Assembly: GCA_965214835.1 (NCBI GenBank)
Contig: CBDCCK010000002.1
Span: 3,072,001-3,136,000 of the forward strand
Reading direction: 5' to 3'
Length of the DNA: 64,000 nt
Origin: Nitrosopumilaceae archaeon
GTDB taxonomy: Archaea > Thermoproteota > Nitrososphaeria > Nitrososphaerales > Nitrosopumilaceae
Under the pieces are notes generated by a model. The model was not told where the DNA came from, ran no database searches, and worked only from the letters and a program-made list of their open reading frames with translations. Shown one piece after another: positions 16,301 through 56,628 of this stretch (position 1 is its first letter; each line of letters opens with the position of its first letter). The position numbers and the translations under genes were made by a program.

Positions 16301-19300
16301 TGGCGGCGCCGTATACGATACCGTGTAGGTGCCCGCGGTGTTTGTGTCAACGGTGTCGCCTCCGACTGTGACCGTGCCTGCATAGCCGGGCTCGCTGTCG
16401 GCCACCTCGGCGCCCAGCTCAGTGTACGTGCCGCCCAGCTCGACGGTCACAGTCGCGTTCCCATAGAGTGTTATTACGGGTGCAGTCGAGTCCCGGACAA
16501 AGACAAACCTGGTGACCGTGTCAGGTGCGTTACCCGCATCGTCTGCCGGTGCCGTATATGTCACCTGATAGTCGCCTGACACTTGCGTGTTGACCGTTCC
16601 CGACTCGGTCACAATGCCGTTATAGTTGGGATCGTTGTCAGATACAGTGGCGCCCTGCTCGGCGTAGGTGCCGCCGAACTCGACGGTCACAGACGCGTCC
16701 CCGTTGAGTGTTATGACGGGTGCCGTGGTGTCCTGGACGGTGACGGTGCGGGTGACCGGATCCGGTGCTTTGCCGGCGTCATCTGCCGGCGCCGTATACG
16801 ATACCGTGTAGGTGCCCGCAGAGTCCGCATCCACGGTGTCGCCTCCTACTGTGACCGTGCCGGTATAATCGGGATCGTTGTCAGATACAGTGGCGCCCGG
16901 ATCCGTGTATGTATCACCGAGCTCGTGAACCAGCGGGTCGTCGCCCGTGGCGCCGATGACAGGCTTTGTGGTGTCGCGCACCTGAACCGTCCTAGTGTTC
17001 TTGCCCTCGTTGCCGTCCCCGTCGGTGGCAGTATAGGTTACGGTATAGTCGCCGTGCTCGTTGACGTCGACGGCCGAGGAGTCCGTGATAACTGCCGAGC
17101 CGTCGTCAGAAGTGGCGCCCGGATCCGTGTACGGGTTGCCGAGCTCGTGGGCCAGCGGGTTGTCGCCGGATACCGTGATGGTGGGCGCCGCCGTATCCTG
17201 GACTATGACGGTACGGGTGACCGGATCCGGCGTGTTGCCGGCGTCGTCTGCCGGCGCCGTGTACGATACCACGTAGGTGCCCGTGGAGTTTGTGTCCACG
17301 GTGGCGCCTCCGACTGTGGCCGTCGTGGTTGTATAGTCGTCATCGTTGTCAGATACGGTGGCACCCAGCTCGGCGTATGCGCCGCCCAGCTCGACTGTCA
17401 CGGACGCGCTCCCGCTGAGTGTTATGACGGGTGCCGTGGTGTCGCGCACCTGAACCATCCGGATGGCCGTGCCCGTGTTGTTACCCGCGTCGGTGGCCGT
17501 GTATGTAACCGCATAGTCACCGTGCTCGTTGACGTCTACTGCCGAGAAGTCTGTGATAACTGCCGAGCCGTCGTCAGAAGTGGCGCCCGGATCCGTGTAC
17601 GGGTTGCCGAGCTCGTGGGCCAGCGGGTTGTCGCCGGATACCGTGATGGTGGGCGCCGCCGTATCCTGGACTATGACGGTACGGGTGACCGGATCCGGCG
17701 TGTTGCCGGCGTCGTCTGCCGGCGCCGTGTACGATACCACGTAGGTGCCCGTGGAGTTTGTGTCCACGGTGGCGCCTCCGACTGTGGCCGTCGTGGTTGT
17801 ATATGCAGGATCATTGTCAGATACGGTGGCGCCCCTCTCCGTGTAGCTGCCGTCGATCACCAGGGTCAGTGACGGCGGACCGGTCACCACAATAACGGGT
17901 GCCGTGGTGTCGCGCACCTGCACCGTCCTAGTGGCCGTGCCCGTGTTGGCGTTATCGTCGGTGGCCGCGTATGACACAAAGTAGTCGCCGGACTTTGTCA
18001 CGTTGACGTTCGAGCCAGTGGTGTGGACTACCGAGCCGTCGTCAGAAGTGGCGCCCTGGTCGGTGTACGGGTCGCCGAGCTCGTGGACCAGCGGACTGCC
18101 ACCGGTTATCGTGATTACGGGCGGTGTCACGTCCGGTGCCTCCACCGCCGTTATATGGAACGTCTCCGAGTCGGCGCCTCCGCGGGTGTCATTTACCGTT
18201 ATTGTAACCTCGTGTGTCTGCCCGGCGTCTGCCTGAACCGGCGTCCAGTCGAGGCGGCCGTCAGACGTGCTGAACGTGGCAGCTGCCGGCAGCGTGCCGC
18301 GCGATATCGAATACGTATGCGTGTCAGTCGGATCCGCGTCAGTCACGTCAGGAGTTATTATAAGCTGGATGCCCACCGTGGCAGTCTGGTTGTCTATTGC
18401 GCCCAGGACCGGGGCGTTGTTGTCGCGCGTGATTGTCACAGTTATCGTGCCCTGTGCTGTGTCGGCCCCGGAGGTGACAGTATAATCAAACGTGTCGGTG
18501 CCATTATAGTCCGGGGACGGCGTGTACGTGATGTCCGTGTCGCTGAAGGTGGCAGATCCTTCTACAGGAGTGCCGACATCCGTTATCCTGGGCGTGTCGC
18601 CCGGATCCGGGTCGGATATGGCCGGCGTGATGACTATGGCCGTGTCCTCCGTGGTCGTGGCATCTGTGTCCGGTGCAACCGGCGGAGCCGGCTCCGGCCT
18701 TCCGGCGGTCTCTAGGGTCTCAGAGACGCTGCGTATACTGTTGCCGGACAGATCCGAGAAGGCACCCTCGTCGACGTCAATCGACGGACTGGCCATGGCA
18801 TCGACCTGGTGTGCCTGTTCCCTGGTAAGCGTAAGCGTCACTGCATCGGAGTCCATCCCCGTGTGGTCGGCACCTGCCAGGCTCACCCGGTTCGAGCCCT
18901 CGACTATGGACAGCTTTGACAGATCCGTCTCGGATGCGTCTATCGTCTTGTCAAACGTGGCGCTGAAGACCCTCGTGTTGAAGTCCAGCGTGGCCGACTC
19001 GAGGACGGGTCTTGACGTGTCTGCATGCTCGAGCTTGACTATCTGGATGCCGTCCTCCGTCCATGAGGCCACTGCGGCGTACGTGGTGCCGTCTATTACG
19101 AAGGTGTCCACGTCGTAGGTGTCAGCAAGCAGTCGGTTGCCGTTGTCGCGCATCTCCACGACAGGAATCAGGTTGCGCGGGTCGCTGACGTCGACCACCT
19201 GCAGGCCGTCCTCTCCTGCGGTGACTGCCACGTACGTGTATATGCCTATCTCAAAGGCCGCCACGCCGTGCGGCCTGTTGAGAATCAGGCCGTTGCCGTC

Positions 19301-37380: not shown

Positions 37381-38657
37381 CAGCTAAGTGAAAAGTACCC
37401 CAGATCCGGCGTCATGGAGGGGGCTTGGGCTCCCTGAGATACACCGCCATGCCCTCCTTGAACACCGGGCATTGTCATGACGTTTTGCACCCCGGATCCC
37501 TCGACAGAGCAGTGCCCTGGCAGTTATCCACTCGTTGAACAGTATCATCGAGTAGTAAAAGCACAGGCATCCTAGCGGCTAGGTCGACGGTCCGGGTCTT
37601 GGCCCTGCATTCTGTCTTGGCGTATCCTGTCTCGATTCCCCACCTTGAAGAGTACGACTCGATCCTGATCCCGGGCCGGTTCGCTGCAAACCCGATGAAC
37701 TTTTTCTCCGGCCTGTCCTCCTTTGATGTACCTACGGGCTTGCCGTCATCCCCGGGCTTTTTTCTCTCCGTTATTACAATCGAATACGTGGCAAAAGCCG
37801 TGCCGTTCTCGATTATATTCCTGGATGCCCCGGGCCTCTTATCGTCATCAAACTCGTTGAGTGCTGCGACTATATTGCCCGTGTTCATGCACGGCATCAG
37901 GAACTTGACATTTCTTTTCTGCAGCATGGCAATCACCTCAACTGAGAAGAACCCGCGGCCAGACAACAGGAGGCGCGCCTTGATGCCGGCCCGCTCAAGC
38001 CGGCCAAGGATCAAACCGGCAGATTCAGGCACGGAACCGGGCCTTTTTACGTGCAGCACGCCCAGTGTCAGGCCCAGCCCGTCGTCGACGCACTGTACGG
38101 TGACGTACCGCTCGGCGTATGTCGTCCCGTCCTTTTTCTTCTGACGCGACAGGTTCCCGTCGGGCCTTCTGTCATAGCGGGAGATCTTGTGCATGTCCAT
38201 TGCTATTGTCAGCCCGCACTTTGGAATCCTTCCGGCCCTGCTTAACCTTTCACGCTGCCGTTTTATCTGCGCCTCAAAGGCCTCCTGTGCGGCCTCCGAG
38301 GTGGTCGCCTTGATCCTGTAGGCGTGCCACCGGGCAGAGGAACCGGTGCCGCTTGTACGCGTCGTGGCGTTGATGCACCCGCCCACCGATGCGTCCATGA
38401 GGGCGCCGCGCATCATGCCGCGGTTCAGGTCGTCGATCCCGTATATGGCGTTGTGTTTCCCGGACATTCTGACGCAGGAAAGCATTCCTTGTGTCCTCTA
38501 ACATATTGGTATATGCGTGGGTTGCCTTTAAGATCGCGACACTGTACGGCTTTTTGTTTGCTCAACGAAAACCACGGGGCCGCACCCCAATTGATCTGTT
38601 TGCATCTCCCAGTGTTGTCAGGATGGTCTAAATTCCTTGATTTTCTGCCTGGCTGGC
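37381..38657 (-). mobile_element. ISH3-family element with degenerate transposase (37475-38485)
   Basis: End cagctaagtgaaaagtacccca; AMDMH..RYD; LSGRGFFS (catalytic D lost); YSSRWGIETGY; other end truncated. Confidence 0.87.
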
Positions 38658-43635: not shown

Positions 43636-43743
43636 GACACATATTATAGCAACGGTCACAAGTAGTTGGGGGCTTACCGGCGATCTGTAAATATACTTGT
43701 ACATGTAAAGGCGGGCAAACGACGCCGTCCCGTAGTACCCGGG

Positions 43744-43873
43744 GGGGTTGTCGTCTAACTCACCTATCTGTCTCAATCTGCACGTTTTTCTGAACTTCCG
43801 TCCCTCTTGCACGCCTAGATCCGGATGACATCGTATGGTTTTCAGGAATTCTGATGAATTAGGCGACAACCCC
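43744..43873. mobile_element. MITE family B copy
   Basis: ggggttgtcgtctaact/aattaggcgacaacccc; imperfect TSD agtacccgg/agtgcccgg. Confidence 0.85.
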
Positions 43874-43939
43874 AGTGCCCGGATATGGCATGCCGCAGCT
43901 CGCTGATCTTTCCGTACACTATCACCCTGAAAACGGCAT

Positions 43940-44294
43940 GTCTGCCCAGGTTCCAGCATTCTTCTACAACATTGAGGTACGGCGATTCTCTTGGGATCAT
44001 CGTCGGCTTGATGTTGGGATGGCCCGTCAGGATGCTGTACTTTTACCATTCAACGGTACTGTTCAACGAGTGGATAATTGCCAGGGCGCTGCTCTGCGAT
44101 AGATCCGGGGTGCAGAACGTCATGACGATGCCCGGTGTTCAAGGAGGGTATGACGATCGATATCATGGAGTCCAAACCTCAAACAAGTTTTTTACCCTGC
44201 CCTGCCAACTCTATAACGGAGGGTATGACGATCGATATCATGGAGTCCAAACCTCCCCCATGACGCCGGATTTGGGATACTTTTCACTTAGCTG
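43940..44294 (+). mobile_element. ISH3-family 3' remnant with terminal inverted repeat
   Basis: RMLYFYHSTVLFNEWIIARALL; ends gatacttttcacttagctg. Confidence 0.8.
44143..44255. repeat. Isolated repeat-spacer-repeat unit 1 (38/37/38 bp)
   Basis: ggagggtatgacgatcgatatcatggagtccaaacctc at 44143-44180 and 44218-44255. Confidence 0.95.
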
Positions 44295-44419
44295 GGGCCG
44301 TCCAGGCAGATGCGCTCAAAAATAGAGCAGGGCAGAAGCGGGCAAGAGGAGCTACTCATTGTGCACAGCTGCAAGAAAGGCAGCGAATCCATTCACGCCT
44401 AGCTTGGCCAAAGGCAGGA

Positions 44420-44493
44420 TGGGATTGGCAGGATTTGAACCTGCGACCCCTGGTACCCAAAACCAGGATCATGCCAAGCTAGACCACAATCCC
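44420..44493 (-). tRNA. tRNA-Pro(UGG)
   Basis: GGGATTG/CAATCCC acceptor stem; CTGGT-TTTGGGT-ACCAG anticodon arm; GCAGG-TTCAAAT-CCTGC T arm. Confidence 0.96.
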
Positions 44494-44793
44494 CAGATTA
44501 CACAGAATCATGGGCCCCAATTTAAGCCTGACACAGTGGTTGCAGGTGCACACTCCCAATCCCGCCTCGCCGTACCTCCATGGCCCTGCACGCAGAACCC
44601 TGCATGGCAGAACCACGTGAAACAGCGACCGCGGTGAGTAGCAAGCACACCTTCAGATGCTGCGACGCGCAAGGCCACGTCTCCCCAGTGGCCATGCAAG
44701 GTCACAGCTACATGCGAGCTCATGCCTAGCTGGCCGAGGATGGGTGCCCGTACACCGGCAGATGATGATTTTAAATAGCAACGCAGCTGAGGC

Positions 44794-53694: not shown

Positions 53695-53806
53695 GACGAC
53701 TAAAGCAGTGGGCGCTATATGAAATCTTGCCATGCCAAACATTCCTGCCAGGCGCGCCTCGTTGTAGGAGACGACTAAAGCAGTGGGCGCTATATGAAAT
53801 CTTGCC
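53695..53806. repeat. Isolated repeat-spacer-repeat unit 2 (37/38/37 bp)
   Basis: gacgactaaagcagtgggcgctatatgaaatcttgcc at 53695-53731 and 53770-53806. Confidence 0.95.
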
Positions 53807-55395: not shown

Positions 55396-56628
55396 ATGGA
55401 AAGATCCGGCGTGTTGATTGGGGGGGTGTTTAGCGTGGCAGTCGCAATAGTTGCCATCACGGTACTGATGAGTCCCCCCTTGGAGATGCAGTCCAAGGTG
55501 GCAGTTGATGAGGAAATTATCAAGGCGGGGAACGAGACCGTAGCCAAGATCAACACGACGGAACAGGTGGCAGTTGATGAGGAAATTATCAAGGCGGGGA
55601 TGTCGCCCAATTCGCTTCAGGCCGCCTCCGCCGGCGAGGCACAAATCGACATGCTCAGTGAGCTGTCCCTGGTGGAGGTTTTTAGGATGTCAGAGCCGGG
55701 GGTGGTCCAGATTAACGTAAGAAAGGGGATCTCCGACATTTCCGGGATCGGCCTGGGCTCGGGTTTTGTCTATGATGTCGAGGGTCACATAATTACCAAC
55801 GCACACGTGGTTAGAAACGCAGAGGATGTCATCATTACGTTTTTGGATGGACGCTCGTACATCGGACAGGTGATTGGGGCAGACATGGATACCGATTTGG
55901 CGGTGATCAAGTCCGATGCAAACCGCACCACGCTGCACCCACTGCCAATCGGAGACTCGTCAAGGCTCAAAATTGGAGAGCAGATAGCAGCAATAGGAAA
56001 CCCGTTTGGGCTGTCGGGCTCGATGACGTCAGGAATAATAAGCCAGATCGGGCGCCTTCTTCCCCAGGCAACAGGATTCTCAATACCAGACATAATACAG
56101 ACGGATGCGGCCATAAACCCAGGCAACTCAGGCGGTCCTCTAATCAACATGATGGGGGAGGTGGTAGGAGTCAATACGGCAATACAGTCCGCCACGGGCG
56201 AGTTCACCGGAATTGGGTTTGCAGTGCCATCAAACACAATCTCAAAAATTGTCCCGGTGCTGATTTCTGAGGGGGAATACCAGCACCCGTGGCTTGGAGT
56301 CAGGGGAGCCGATATCGGTCCAGAATACGCAGATGTCCTGAACCTTTTGGATGCAAGGGGGTTTCTGATAATGGATGTAATAGACGACAGTCCGGCATTC
56401 AAGGCAGGACTGCAGGGAGCAACGGACACAGTCCAAAAGGACGGGCAGGTCTACAGGATAGGCGGGGATATCGTGCTGTCGGTGGACGGCAAGGAGGTAA
56501 GAAAGATTGACGACATCCTGCTACACCTGCAAAGGGAAAAGGCTGTCGGGGACACGCTGGAACTAGAGGTTCTTCGAGACGGCAGAACCTCCAGCCTGGC
56601 AATCATGCTAGAAGAGCGGCCAGAGTAA
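55396..56628 (+). CDS. htrA: HtrA/DegP-like membrane-anchored serine protease with PDZ domain
   Basis: GSGF, ITNAHVV, DLAVIK, AIGNPFGL, IQTDAAINPGNSGGPL; PDZ. Confidence 0.93.
   Translation: MERSGVLIGGVFSVAVAIVAITVLMSPPLEMQSKVAVDEEIIKAGNETVAKINTTEQVAVDEEIIKAGMSPNSLQAASAGEAQIDMLSELSLVEVFRMSEPGVVQINVRKGISDISGIGLGSGFVYDVEGHIITNAHVVRNAEDVIITFLDGRSYIGQVIGADMDTDLAVIKSDANRTTLHPLPIGDSSRLKIGEQIAAIGNPFGLSGSMTSGIISQIGRLLPQATGFSIPDIIQTDAAINPGNSGGPLINMMGEVVGVNTAIQSATGEFTGIGFAVPSNTISKIVPVLISEGEYQHPWLGVRGADIGPEYADVLNLLDARGFLIMDVIDDSPAFKAGLQGATDTVQKDGQVYRIGGDIVLSVDGKEVRKIDDILLHLQREKAVGDTLELEVLRDGRTSSLAIMLEERPE
55496..55600. repeat. Isolated repeat-spacer-repeat unit 3 (36/33/36 bp), in frame within htrA
   Basis: aggtggcagttgatgaggaaattatcaaggcgggga at 55496-55531 and 55565-55600. 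Confidence 0.95.

Follow-up and report, generated by a model that had tools for sequence, protein, structure and literature searches.

A precise 75-bp gain in the terminal fragment of an insertion sequence (IS), here called unit 1, is very probably the scar of an off-target (non-canonical) spacer integration made by type I-G Cas4/Cas1-Cas2. Unit 1 lies in the window, a stretch of 64,000 nucleotides from the genome of a Nitrosopumilaceae archaeon (contig CBDCCK010000002.1, positions 3,072,001 to 3,136,000); coordinates given below are those of the window unless they carry a contig prefix (C1 or C2). Two identical 38-bp copies of a target sequence, GGAGGGTATGACGATCGATATCATGGAGTCCAAACCTC, occupy positions 44143-44180 and 44218-44255, and are separated by a spacer-like insert of 37 bp (44181-44217) that occurs once genome-wide (no strand is assigned to these three parts). 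The start-to-start distance of the copies is 75 bp, as is the total gain. The 38-mer is found exactly twice in the whole 3.22-Mb assembly, both times at unit 1, and an exact 38-bp repeat at a spacing of 75 cannot be a product of chance. The first-pass annotation of this DNA described a 38-bp duplication with a 37-bp insert. The exact repeat stands as described; the duplication itself was most likely 36 bp, the length of the CRISPR repeat, with 2 bp of chance identity added, because the genome-wide class of units described below points to a 36-bp duplication, i.e. to a 36 + 39 rather than a 38 + 37 division. Chance identity of 2 bp, as unit 1 needs under the 36-bp model, is expected in ~10% of events. 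Three 36-bp registers are possible in unit 1, one of which puts GGGG just outside the segment (on the reverse strand).

The host of unit 1 is, by homology, a terminal fragment of an ISH3-like IS (44028-44294, plus strand); the match of the transposase to the ISH3 family is weak (66.7 bits, with a cut-off of 225). Comparison with a full IS copy places the transposase stop codon at about 44123-44125, ~18 nt before unit 1, and the IS terminus at about 44294, ~40 nt after it. Since the stop precedes and the terminus follows, unit 1 is located in non-coding IS-end DNA. Its pseudo-repeat is IS-end DNA, is present in only two copies, and is unrelated to the real CRISPR repeat. Neither of two familiar arrangements describes the unit. 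A canonical array contains several repeats of its own beside a leader, which unit 1 does not have, and an IS or transposon insertion places element ends or a transposase between the target copies, while unit 1 has there a unique insert of 37 bp.

Other copies of the same IS end provide a record of the site before the gain. The first-pass annotation had pointed to a homologous end with a single copy of the 38-mer, differing from unit 1 at about 10 of 38 positions, and a count of 10 was obtained with the full IS copy, where the single-copy homologue is at about 37420-37457 on the minus strand. Unit 1 and this minus-strand homologue are colinear both upstream (gttcaa) and downstream (c[c/t]ccatgacgccgga). 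Twelve other copies of the IS end were collected from the genome by blastn and aligned with unit 1 using MAFFT. All 12 contain one homologue of the 38-mer and a 75-column gap opposite the insert and the second copy, and none of them carries the 37-mer. The earlier proposal of a recent, long target duplication around a foreign insert, with paralogous copies serving as an internal empty-site control, is thus upheld by 12 empty paralogues out of 12.

The possibility that no reads span the unit, also raised in that annotation, was addressed by comparing Logan contigs of four public runs with positions 43700-44700. Runs X1 and X3, which belong to two studies, each yield a 97-nt unitig that covers 44151-44247 with 0 differences and so crosses the insert; this interval corresponds exactly to all 31-mers that hold insert bases, and comprises the end of copy 1, the insert, and the start of copy 2. 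Because the X1 and X3 unitigs span the insert, the filled form of unit 1 exists in two studies. A different structure is present in run X2. A 531-nt contig from this run joins 43844-44142 straight to 44218-44449 with 0 differences, omitting exactly 75 bp (38 letters fit both sides). Depth in the two insert-spanning bins of run X2 was 0 and 20.6, the latter bin consisting mostly of copy 2. The X2 contig represents the unit 1 locus and no other IS copy, because it reaches the unique flank and the tRNA-Pro(TGG) gene (44420-44493, minus strand). Unit 1 is therefore an exact gain of 75 bp whose presence varies between closely related samples. In run X3, the depth of the insert unitig was 13 and that of the flanks 34-38; unitig depth is a weak measure, and the difference may reflect a mixed population.

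Unit 1 belongs to a class of ~50 units of the same geometry. Direct repeats were sought genome-wide at all periods between 40 and 200, and isolated, non-redundant cases were kept. Of the 41 such cases with an exact repeat of 33-40 bp, 38 had a period of 69-76. Exact repeats of at least 36 bp at periods 68-78 were 36 bp long in 15 cases, 37 in 11, 38 in three, 39 in three, and 44 in one, and the counts for lengths 36-39 fit a fixed 36-bp duplication with chance extension (expected 17.9, 9.0, 3.4, and 1.7; chi-square p = 0.57). When mismatches were tolerated (at least 31 of 36 positions identical), 50 of 79 distinct isolated hits had a period of 68-76; the remaining periods had 0-2 hits each, save 84 and 156, where the excess was attributed to multi-copy elements. 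Each unit duplicates its own local sequence, and the inserts of separate units are unrelated. The commonest period is 72 (18 of 50 units); after subtraction of 36, the periods of the 50 units leave 36 (18 units), 39 (10), 37 (nine), 35 (four), 38 (four), 33 (two), 40 (two), and 32 (one).

Two further members of the class are found in the window. Unit 2 (53695-53806, no strand assigned) is formed by a 37-bp exact repeat at 53695-53731 and 53770-53806 with a 38-bp insert (53732-53769), and lies outside any long open frame. Unit 3 (55496-55600, plus strand) is formed by a 36-bp exact repeat at 55496-55531 and 55565-55600 with a 33-bp insert. Some units are off the 36-bp ruler, including several with exact repeats of 31-34 bp and one with a 42-bp repeat and a 37-bp insert. 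The latter is present in four IS copies and was left out by the isolation filter, as were three loci with three pseudo-repeats and an identical insert present twice, at C2:2610439, 2832639, and 2513205; the locus at C2:1927769 has this form too. Such repeat-spacer-repeat-spacer-repeat loci look like products of unequal recombination between the pseudo-repeats of one unit, a process by which precise deletion of a unit could also occur. An exact tandem of 2 x 75 bp is present at C2:1978922.

The dimensions of the units match those of the resident CRISPR system, which is of type I-G and is the only one in the genome. Its arrays, a large one of 148 repeats (C2:2482178-2492954) and a small one of eight (C2:135821-136367), have a 36-nt repeat that is found nowhere else, and a similar leader on the matching side of both. 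The 147 spacers of the large array are 37 (54 spacers), 36 (45), 38 (18), 39 (16), 35 (seven), and 40 (four) nt long, with three outliers; their mean length is about 36.8, compared with 37.0 for period minus 36 in the units. The insert of unit 1, at 37-39 bp, is inside the resident spacer range (mostly 35-40 nt). The sole Cas1 match genome-wide is a full-length Cas4g/Cas1g fusion (NF049935, 754.8 bits with a cut-off of 560). Its gene, cas4/1, lies on the rpl6 strand, 618 nt downstream of that gene, and is followed by the Cas2 gene, the array, an IS630-family transposase gene, and then cas3g, cas8g2, cas7g, and csb2. Interruption of a ribosomal-protein operon by the CRISPR-cas locus is not shown by this gene order: there are no ribosomal-protein genes after the cas genes.

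Some minor features of the system were noted. A fragment corresponding to the C-terminal part of Cas3g is encoded at C2:130,078-131,262 (L005:2078-3262), 4.6 kb from the small array, and is probably a remnant of a second I-G locus. A spacer of the true array (C2:2485136-2485172) matches, at 36 of 37 nt, a glycosyltransferase gene at C1:6366-6401, and may be a self-targeting spacer. Contig C1 (13 kb) was considered as a plasmid or virus and rejected as such: its genes code for an IS66 transposase, glycosyltransferases, a methyltransferase, and a laminin-G protein, and it is probably an unplaced piece of the chromosome.

Target sites were analysed in 15 units, those with a repeat of exactly 36 bp, which leaves no ambiguity about the boundaries. 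The first base within the 36-bp segment is G or C at 27 of 30 ends (p = 1e-5), and GG stands just outside at least one side in nine of 15 units, compared with 13.5% of random sites (p = 3e-5). The real leader has GGG immediately before the repeat. Mean identity of the targets to the leader plus repeat was only slightly raised, at 15.71 of 46 positions compared with 14.07 +/- 0.45 in controls, and the largest of 300 control means (15.77) was higher still; the targets resemble the real leader and repeat weakly. In vitro, Cas1-Cas2 of Pyrococcus furiosus is described as integrating at non-CRISPR sites where G/C are placed one repeat length apart (PMC6698737).

Sources of the inserts were sought by blastn-short searches of all unit inserts against the genome, with exclusion of hits that extend through the repeats (whole-unit copies) and of the weak or partial insert hits of C2:1652870 and C2:2227481. 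A chromosomal source that is non-paralogous and evaluable was found for 12 of 50 inserts, and no source was found in the genome for the other 38. TTC is exactly adjacent to the source in five of the 12 cases (C2:2332658, 2453982, 2950434, 3125695, and 3161274), TTG is exactly adjacent in two (C2:2445029 and 2245958), and TTG is one base away in three (C2:1033730, 1625426, and 2394950), while neither is present in two (C2:2814926 and 2927710). Exact adjacency of TTC or TTG in at least seven of 12 sources, at a chance rate of 0.062, has p = 2e-6. A Cas4/Cas1 fusion of a type I-U/I-G system, that of Geobacter sulfurreducens, is reported to select TTN PAMs (PMC6547450), and the occurrence of TTC or TTG at 10 of the 12 sister-unit sources fits a TTN PAM of I-G Cas4/Cas1 as reported there. 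The insert of window unit 2 reproduces, without a mismatch, the stretch C2:1227786-1227823 of an aspartokinase-like gene, where TTC stands before it; other units have sources in genes for CTP synthase, a class-V aminotransferase, and a DDE transposase. At C2:2445029, the orientation deduced from the PAM conflicts with that deduced from the GG side.

A stretch of 6.3 kb (C2:900,193-906,409) beside orc1/cdc6 and the genes for the small and large subunits of PolD contains four of the 12 self sources (p = 7e-9). This segment is probably the replication-origin region; in P. furiosus, hot spots of self protospacers are reported to include oriC and transposase genes (PMC5737086). Self-derived inserts are commoner in the units (12 of 50) than among spacers of the true arrays (two of 154, p = 9e-7), from which we infer that the units escape the autoimmunity selection that acts on real crRNAs.

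For the insert of unit 1, the source and PAM search suggested by the first-pass annotation came back empty. In the genome, blastn-short returned a 17-nt chance match only, and an exact 30-mer core of the insert had 0 hits in the viral_contigs, genome_contigs, and metagenome_contigs collections. The best blastn match to phages was 23 of 25 nt at E = 0.2, and the search against plasmids returned nothing. The insert of unit 3 likewise had 0 exact hits in viral_contigs and metagenome_contigs.

We infer that the unit events were catalysed by the resident Cas4/Cas1-Cas2. According to the proposed mechanism, the complex would capture a DNA fragment of ~37-39 bp and attach the two 3' ends of that fragment to the opposite strands of a site outside CRISPR, in this case in an IS end. 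The attack points would be 36 bp apart, the spacing that the complex normally measures across the 36-bp CRISPR repeat, and gap filling would then duplicate the intervening 36 bp, giving a pseudo-repeat, a spacer, and a second pseudo-repeat. An identical reaction would have taken place ~50 times across the chromosome. One idea for the low fidelity is read-through expression of cas4/1 from the rpl6 side; it is suggested by the position of cas4/1 behind rpl6. Off-target integration is supported by the geometry of the units, the match to resident lengths, the single intact cas1, the empty sites, TTC or TTG at sister sources, and the G/C ends. Several observations go against it. The insert of unit 1 itself has no found source or PAM, and the exact repeat of unit 1 is 38 bp long; two of the 12 sources have no TT[C/G], and a few units are off the ruler. 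To these are added the weak leader and repeat resemblance, the orientation conflict at C2:2445029, and the single candidate unit in the sampled part of congener G004 (see below).

Other origins of the units were weighed against the same data. A process unrelated to CRISPR could add a constant ~72 nt, by combining a short copy of the cell's own DNA with a compensating duplication of the target. The prevalence of period 72 (18 of 50 units) would be in line with such a process, as would the fact that about one quarter of inserts copy the own genome, and some shorter exact repeats do have longer inserts (31 + 38, 32 + 40, and 34 + 38). However, these shorter repeats are 36-bp repeats bearing one to four mismatches at one end, and compensation is not seen where the repeat is constant at exactly 36 bp: the period of those 15 units still varies from 69 to 76. 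A constant-length process also leaves unexplained why the repeat mode equals the resident CRISPR repeat length, why insert lengths track spacers, why TTC or TTG stands beside 10 of 12 sources, and why 38 of 50 inserts have no source in the genome; we consider it very unlikely. Replication slippage, tandem duplication, or templated break repair without an integrase appears highly improbable. Slippage can yield direct repeats, and the tandem at C2:1978922 and the loci with three pseudo-repeats are of a kind that it could produce, but tandem duplication cannot turn an ancestral A into A-B-A, and B is absent from the X2 allele, from 12 of 12 paralogues, and from five of five orthologues in the case of unit 3. 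Neither a sharp 36-bp mode at ~50 unrelated sites nor a PAM at distant sources would be expected from slippage.

Unit 1 could also be looked upon as a functional mini-CRISPR, i.e. a neo-CRISPR or a regulatory crRNA-like gene maintained by selection. Its repeat-spacer-repeat architecture invites this view, three loci have grown to three repeats, and the idea that off-target units may seed new arrays has been published (Nivala et al. 2018, as presented in passages that cite it). The pseudo-repeat is, however, unlike the real repeat, and recognition by a repeat-processing Cas protein would not be expected; the three-repeat loci hold one spacer twice, which has the look of unequal recombination and not of a second acquisition. 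Unit 1 is missing from one sample and is located in a dead IS end, and the excess of self inserts (12 of 50 units, compared with two of 154 in the arrays) suggests that the inserts do not guide interference. Selection for such a function is thus a most doubtful explanation. The chance that unit 1 is an assembly artefact is practically negligible: IS fragments and repeats abound in the region, but in X1 and X3, which come from two studies, the insert and its two junctions are crossed by unitigs with 0 differences, and ~50 units of equal geometry are found in unique DNA.

Returning to off-target integration by the I-G complex, its consequences for host genes can be traced in the units themselves. 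When units were removed in silico, 31 of 50 fell in open frames of 150 codons or more, and 12 of these 31 frames stay open with the unit in place and are longer by one third of the period, i.e. by 23-25 codons (examples are C2:204691, 1033730, 1849910, 1921439, 2366624, 2445029, and 3127496). In the gene for an HtrA/DegP-like protease (55396-56628), window unit 3 makes an in-frame insertion of 23 residues that includes a repeated VAVDEEIIKAG and lies close to the N-terminus of the protein; the insertion is absent in all five orthologues compared (four from the same genus and one from the same family). Periods divisible by 3 are found in 30 of 50 units and in 62 of 147 cases in the array (p = 0.03), an excess that is not concentrated in long open frames (17 of 31 units inside and 13 of 19 outside), so that no selection for in-frame inserts is concluded from it. 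The units are unevenly distributed: the 300 kb upstream of cas4/1 (C2:2,180,000-2,480,000) contain 16 of the 50 (scan-statistic permutation p = 0.0012), and proximity to the cas genes, a tolerant region, and local DNA features are candidate causes of this clustering.

A congener, G004, has an uninterrupted Cas4/Cas1 that is 65% identical, a near-identical 36-nt repeat, and an array. In the 1.14 Mb of its genome that was sampled, there was one candidate unit, compared with ~18 expected at the density of the studied genome. This points to a species- or strain-specific burst, which the integrase family alone does not explain. The genes upstream of cas4/1 in G004 are different from those in the studied genome. 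The one candidate, at C1:1094039 of that genome (L021), has a 37-bp exact repeat with a period of 71, in a genome of 38% GC.

A broader reading is that the units record a recent or ongoing burst, in which about one quarter of the retained I-G Cas4/Cas1-Cas2 integrations took place outside the arrays, so that the complex acts as a genome-wide insertional mutagen and leaves a record of uptake that is unfiltered by autoimmunity and still polymorphic between populations. We regard the case for this reading as evenly balanced. If it is true, the module adds in-frame insertions of 23-25 residues to otherwise open genes, the 300 kb upstream of the cas genes are struck most often, and the self DNA preserved in the units is PAM-selected, with orc1/cdc6 next to its hot spot.

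The proposed reaction resembles target-site duplication (TSD) by transposons, IS elements, and casposons, in that a staggered attack on two strands followed by gap repair duplicates the target. Casposons are transposons with a Cas1-solo integrase and have TSDs of ~14-15 bp. Unlike transposons and casposons, the units have no mobile element between the repeats, which enclose unique inserts of 33-40 bp, and their duplication is 36 bp long; unlike in casposons, the sole cas1 of this genome belongs to a CRISPR locus.

A close known counterpart is the formation of neo-CRISPR units by over-expressed type I-E Cas1-Cas2 of E. coli (Nivala, Shipman and Church 2018, Nat Microbiol, as cited in 10.1101/148544, PMC7054753, and PMC6698737). 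As far as these citing texts describe it, the E. coli events share with the present ones a spacer-sized insert, a duplication equal in length to the resident repeat, and a scatter over the chromosome. Here, in contrast to over-expression in E. coli, the events are natural and archaeal, involve a type I-G Cas4/Cas1 fusion, and follow a ruler of 36 rather than 28 bp. They also differ from the E. coli case, as it is cited, in the ~50 retained events beside 154 array spacers, in the PAM-bearing sources, and in one event being polymorphic. P. furiosus Cas1-Cas2 as described in PMC6698737 is similar in its full-site integration, with G/C one repeat apart and a loose resemblance to the repeat; that work was done in vitro, on plasmids, with a 30-bp ruler, whereas the scars described here are fixed in a genome. 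The G. sulfurreducens Cas4/Cas1 is similar in its Cas4g/Cas1g NCBIfam family and its TTN-type PAM, while the work on it concerns on-target acquisition, and its abstract is silent on off-target events (PMC6547450). The clustering of self protospacers at the origin region and at transposase genes is shared with naive uptake in P. furiosus, as reported in PMC5737086, although the spacers there come from true arrays in culture and those here were kept in off-target units.

According to what could be consulted of 10.1101/148544, off-target integration has been demonstrated mainly with over-expressed E. coli Cas1-Cas2 and in vitro, and natural cases are circumstantial. Our literature search found no natural genome with dozens of such events, and none for type I-G or for archaea in vivo, in a coverage that left subscription journals mostly outside, so that a report could be missed. 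Off-target integration is thus a known kind of event, and natural cases on a scale of ~50 units appear to be rare. The new elements are that a single archaeal genome contains so many natural events, that self sources carry a PAM, that genes have received in-frame insertions, and that one allele is still segregating in public data. The ~50 scars constitute natural data on what an integrase recognizes without a leader or repeat, namely a 36-bp ruler and G/C at the attack points. They also bear on uptake before autoimmunity selection (about one quarter self DNA, PAM-selected and origin-proximal), as well as the cost of adaptation to the host, whose genes are interrupted or lengthened in frame. 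Real-time tracking of the process may be possible, since public runs differ in unit 1, one lacking it and others containing it.

Repeats of other kinds were noticed in passing. Within C2:34,400-35,750, there are ~25 copies of a palindromic motif of ~24 nt (AAAATGTGGCAA[A/T]ATTGCCACATT) at a spacing of ~50-100 bp, followed by a region of 84-bp tandem repeats. In the window, Tandem Repeats Finder reported a 468-bp tandem repeat at 16731-18115, with three copies and an 81% match.
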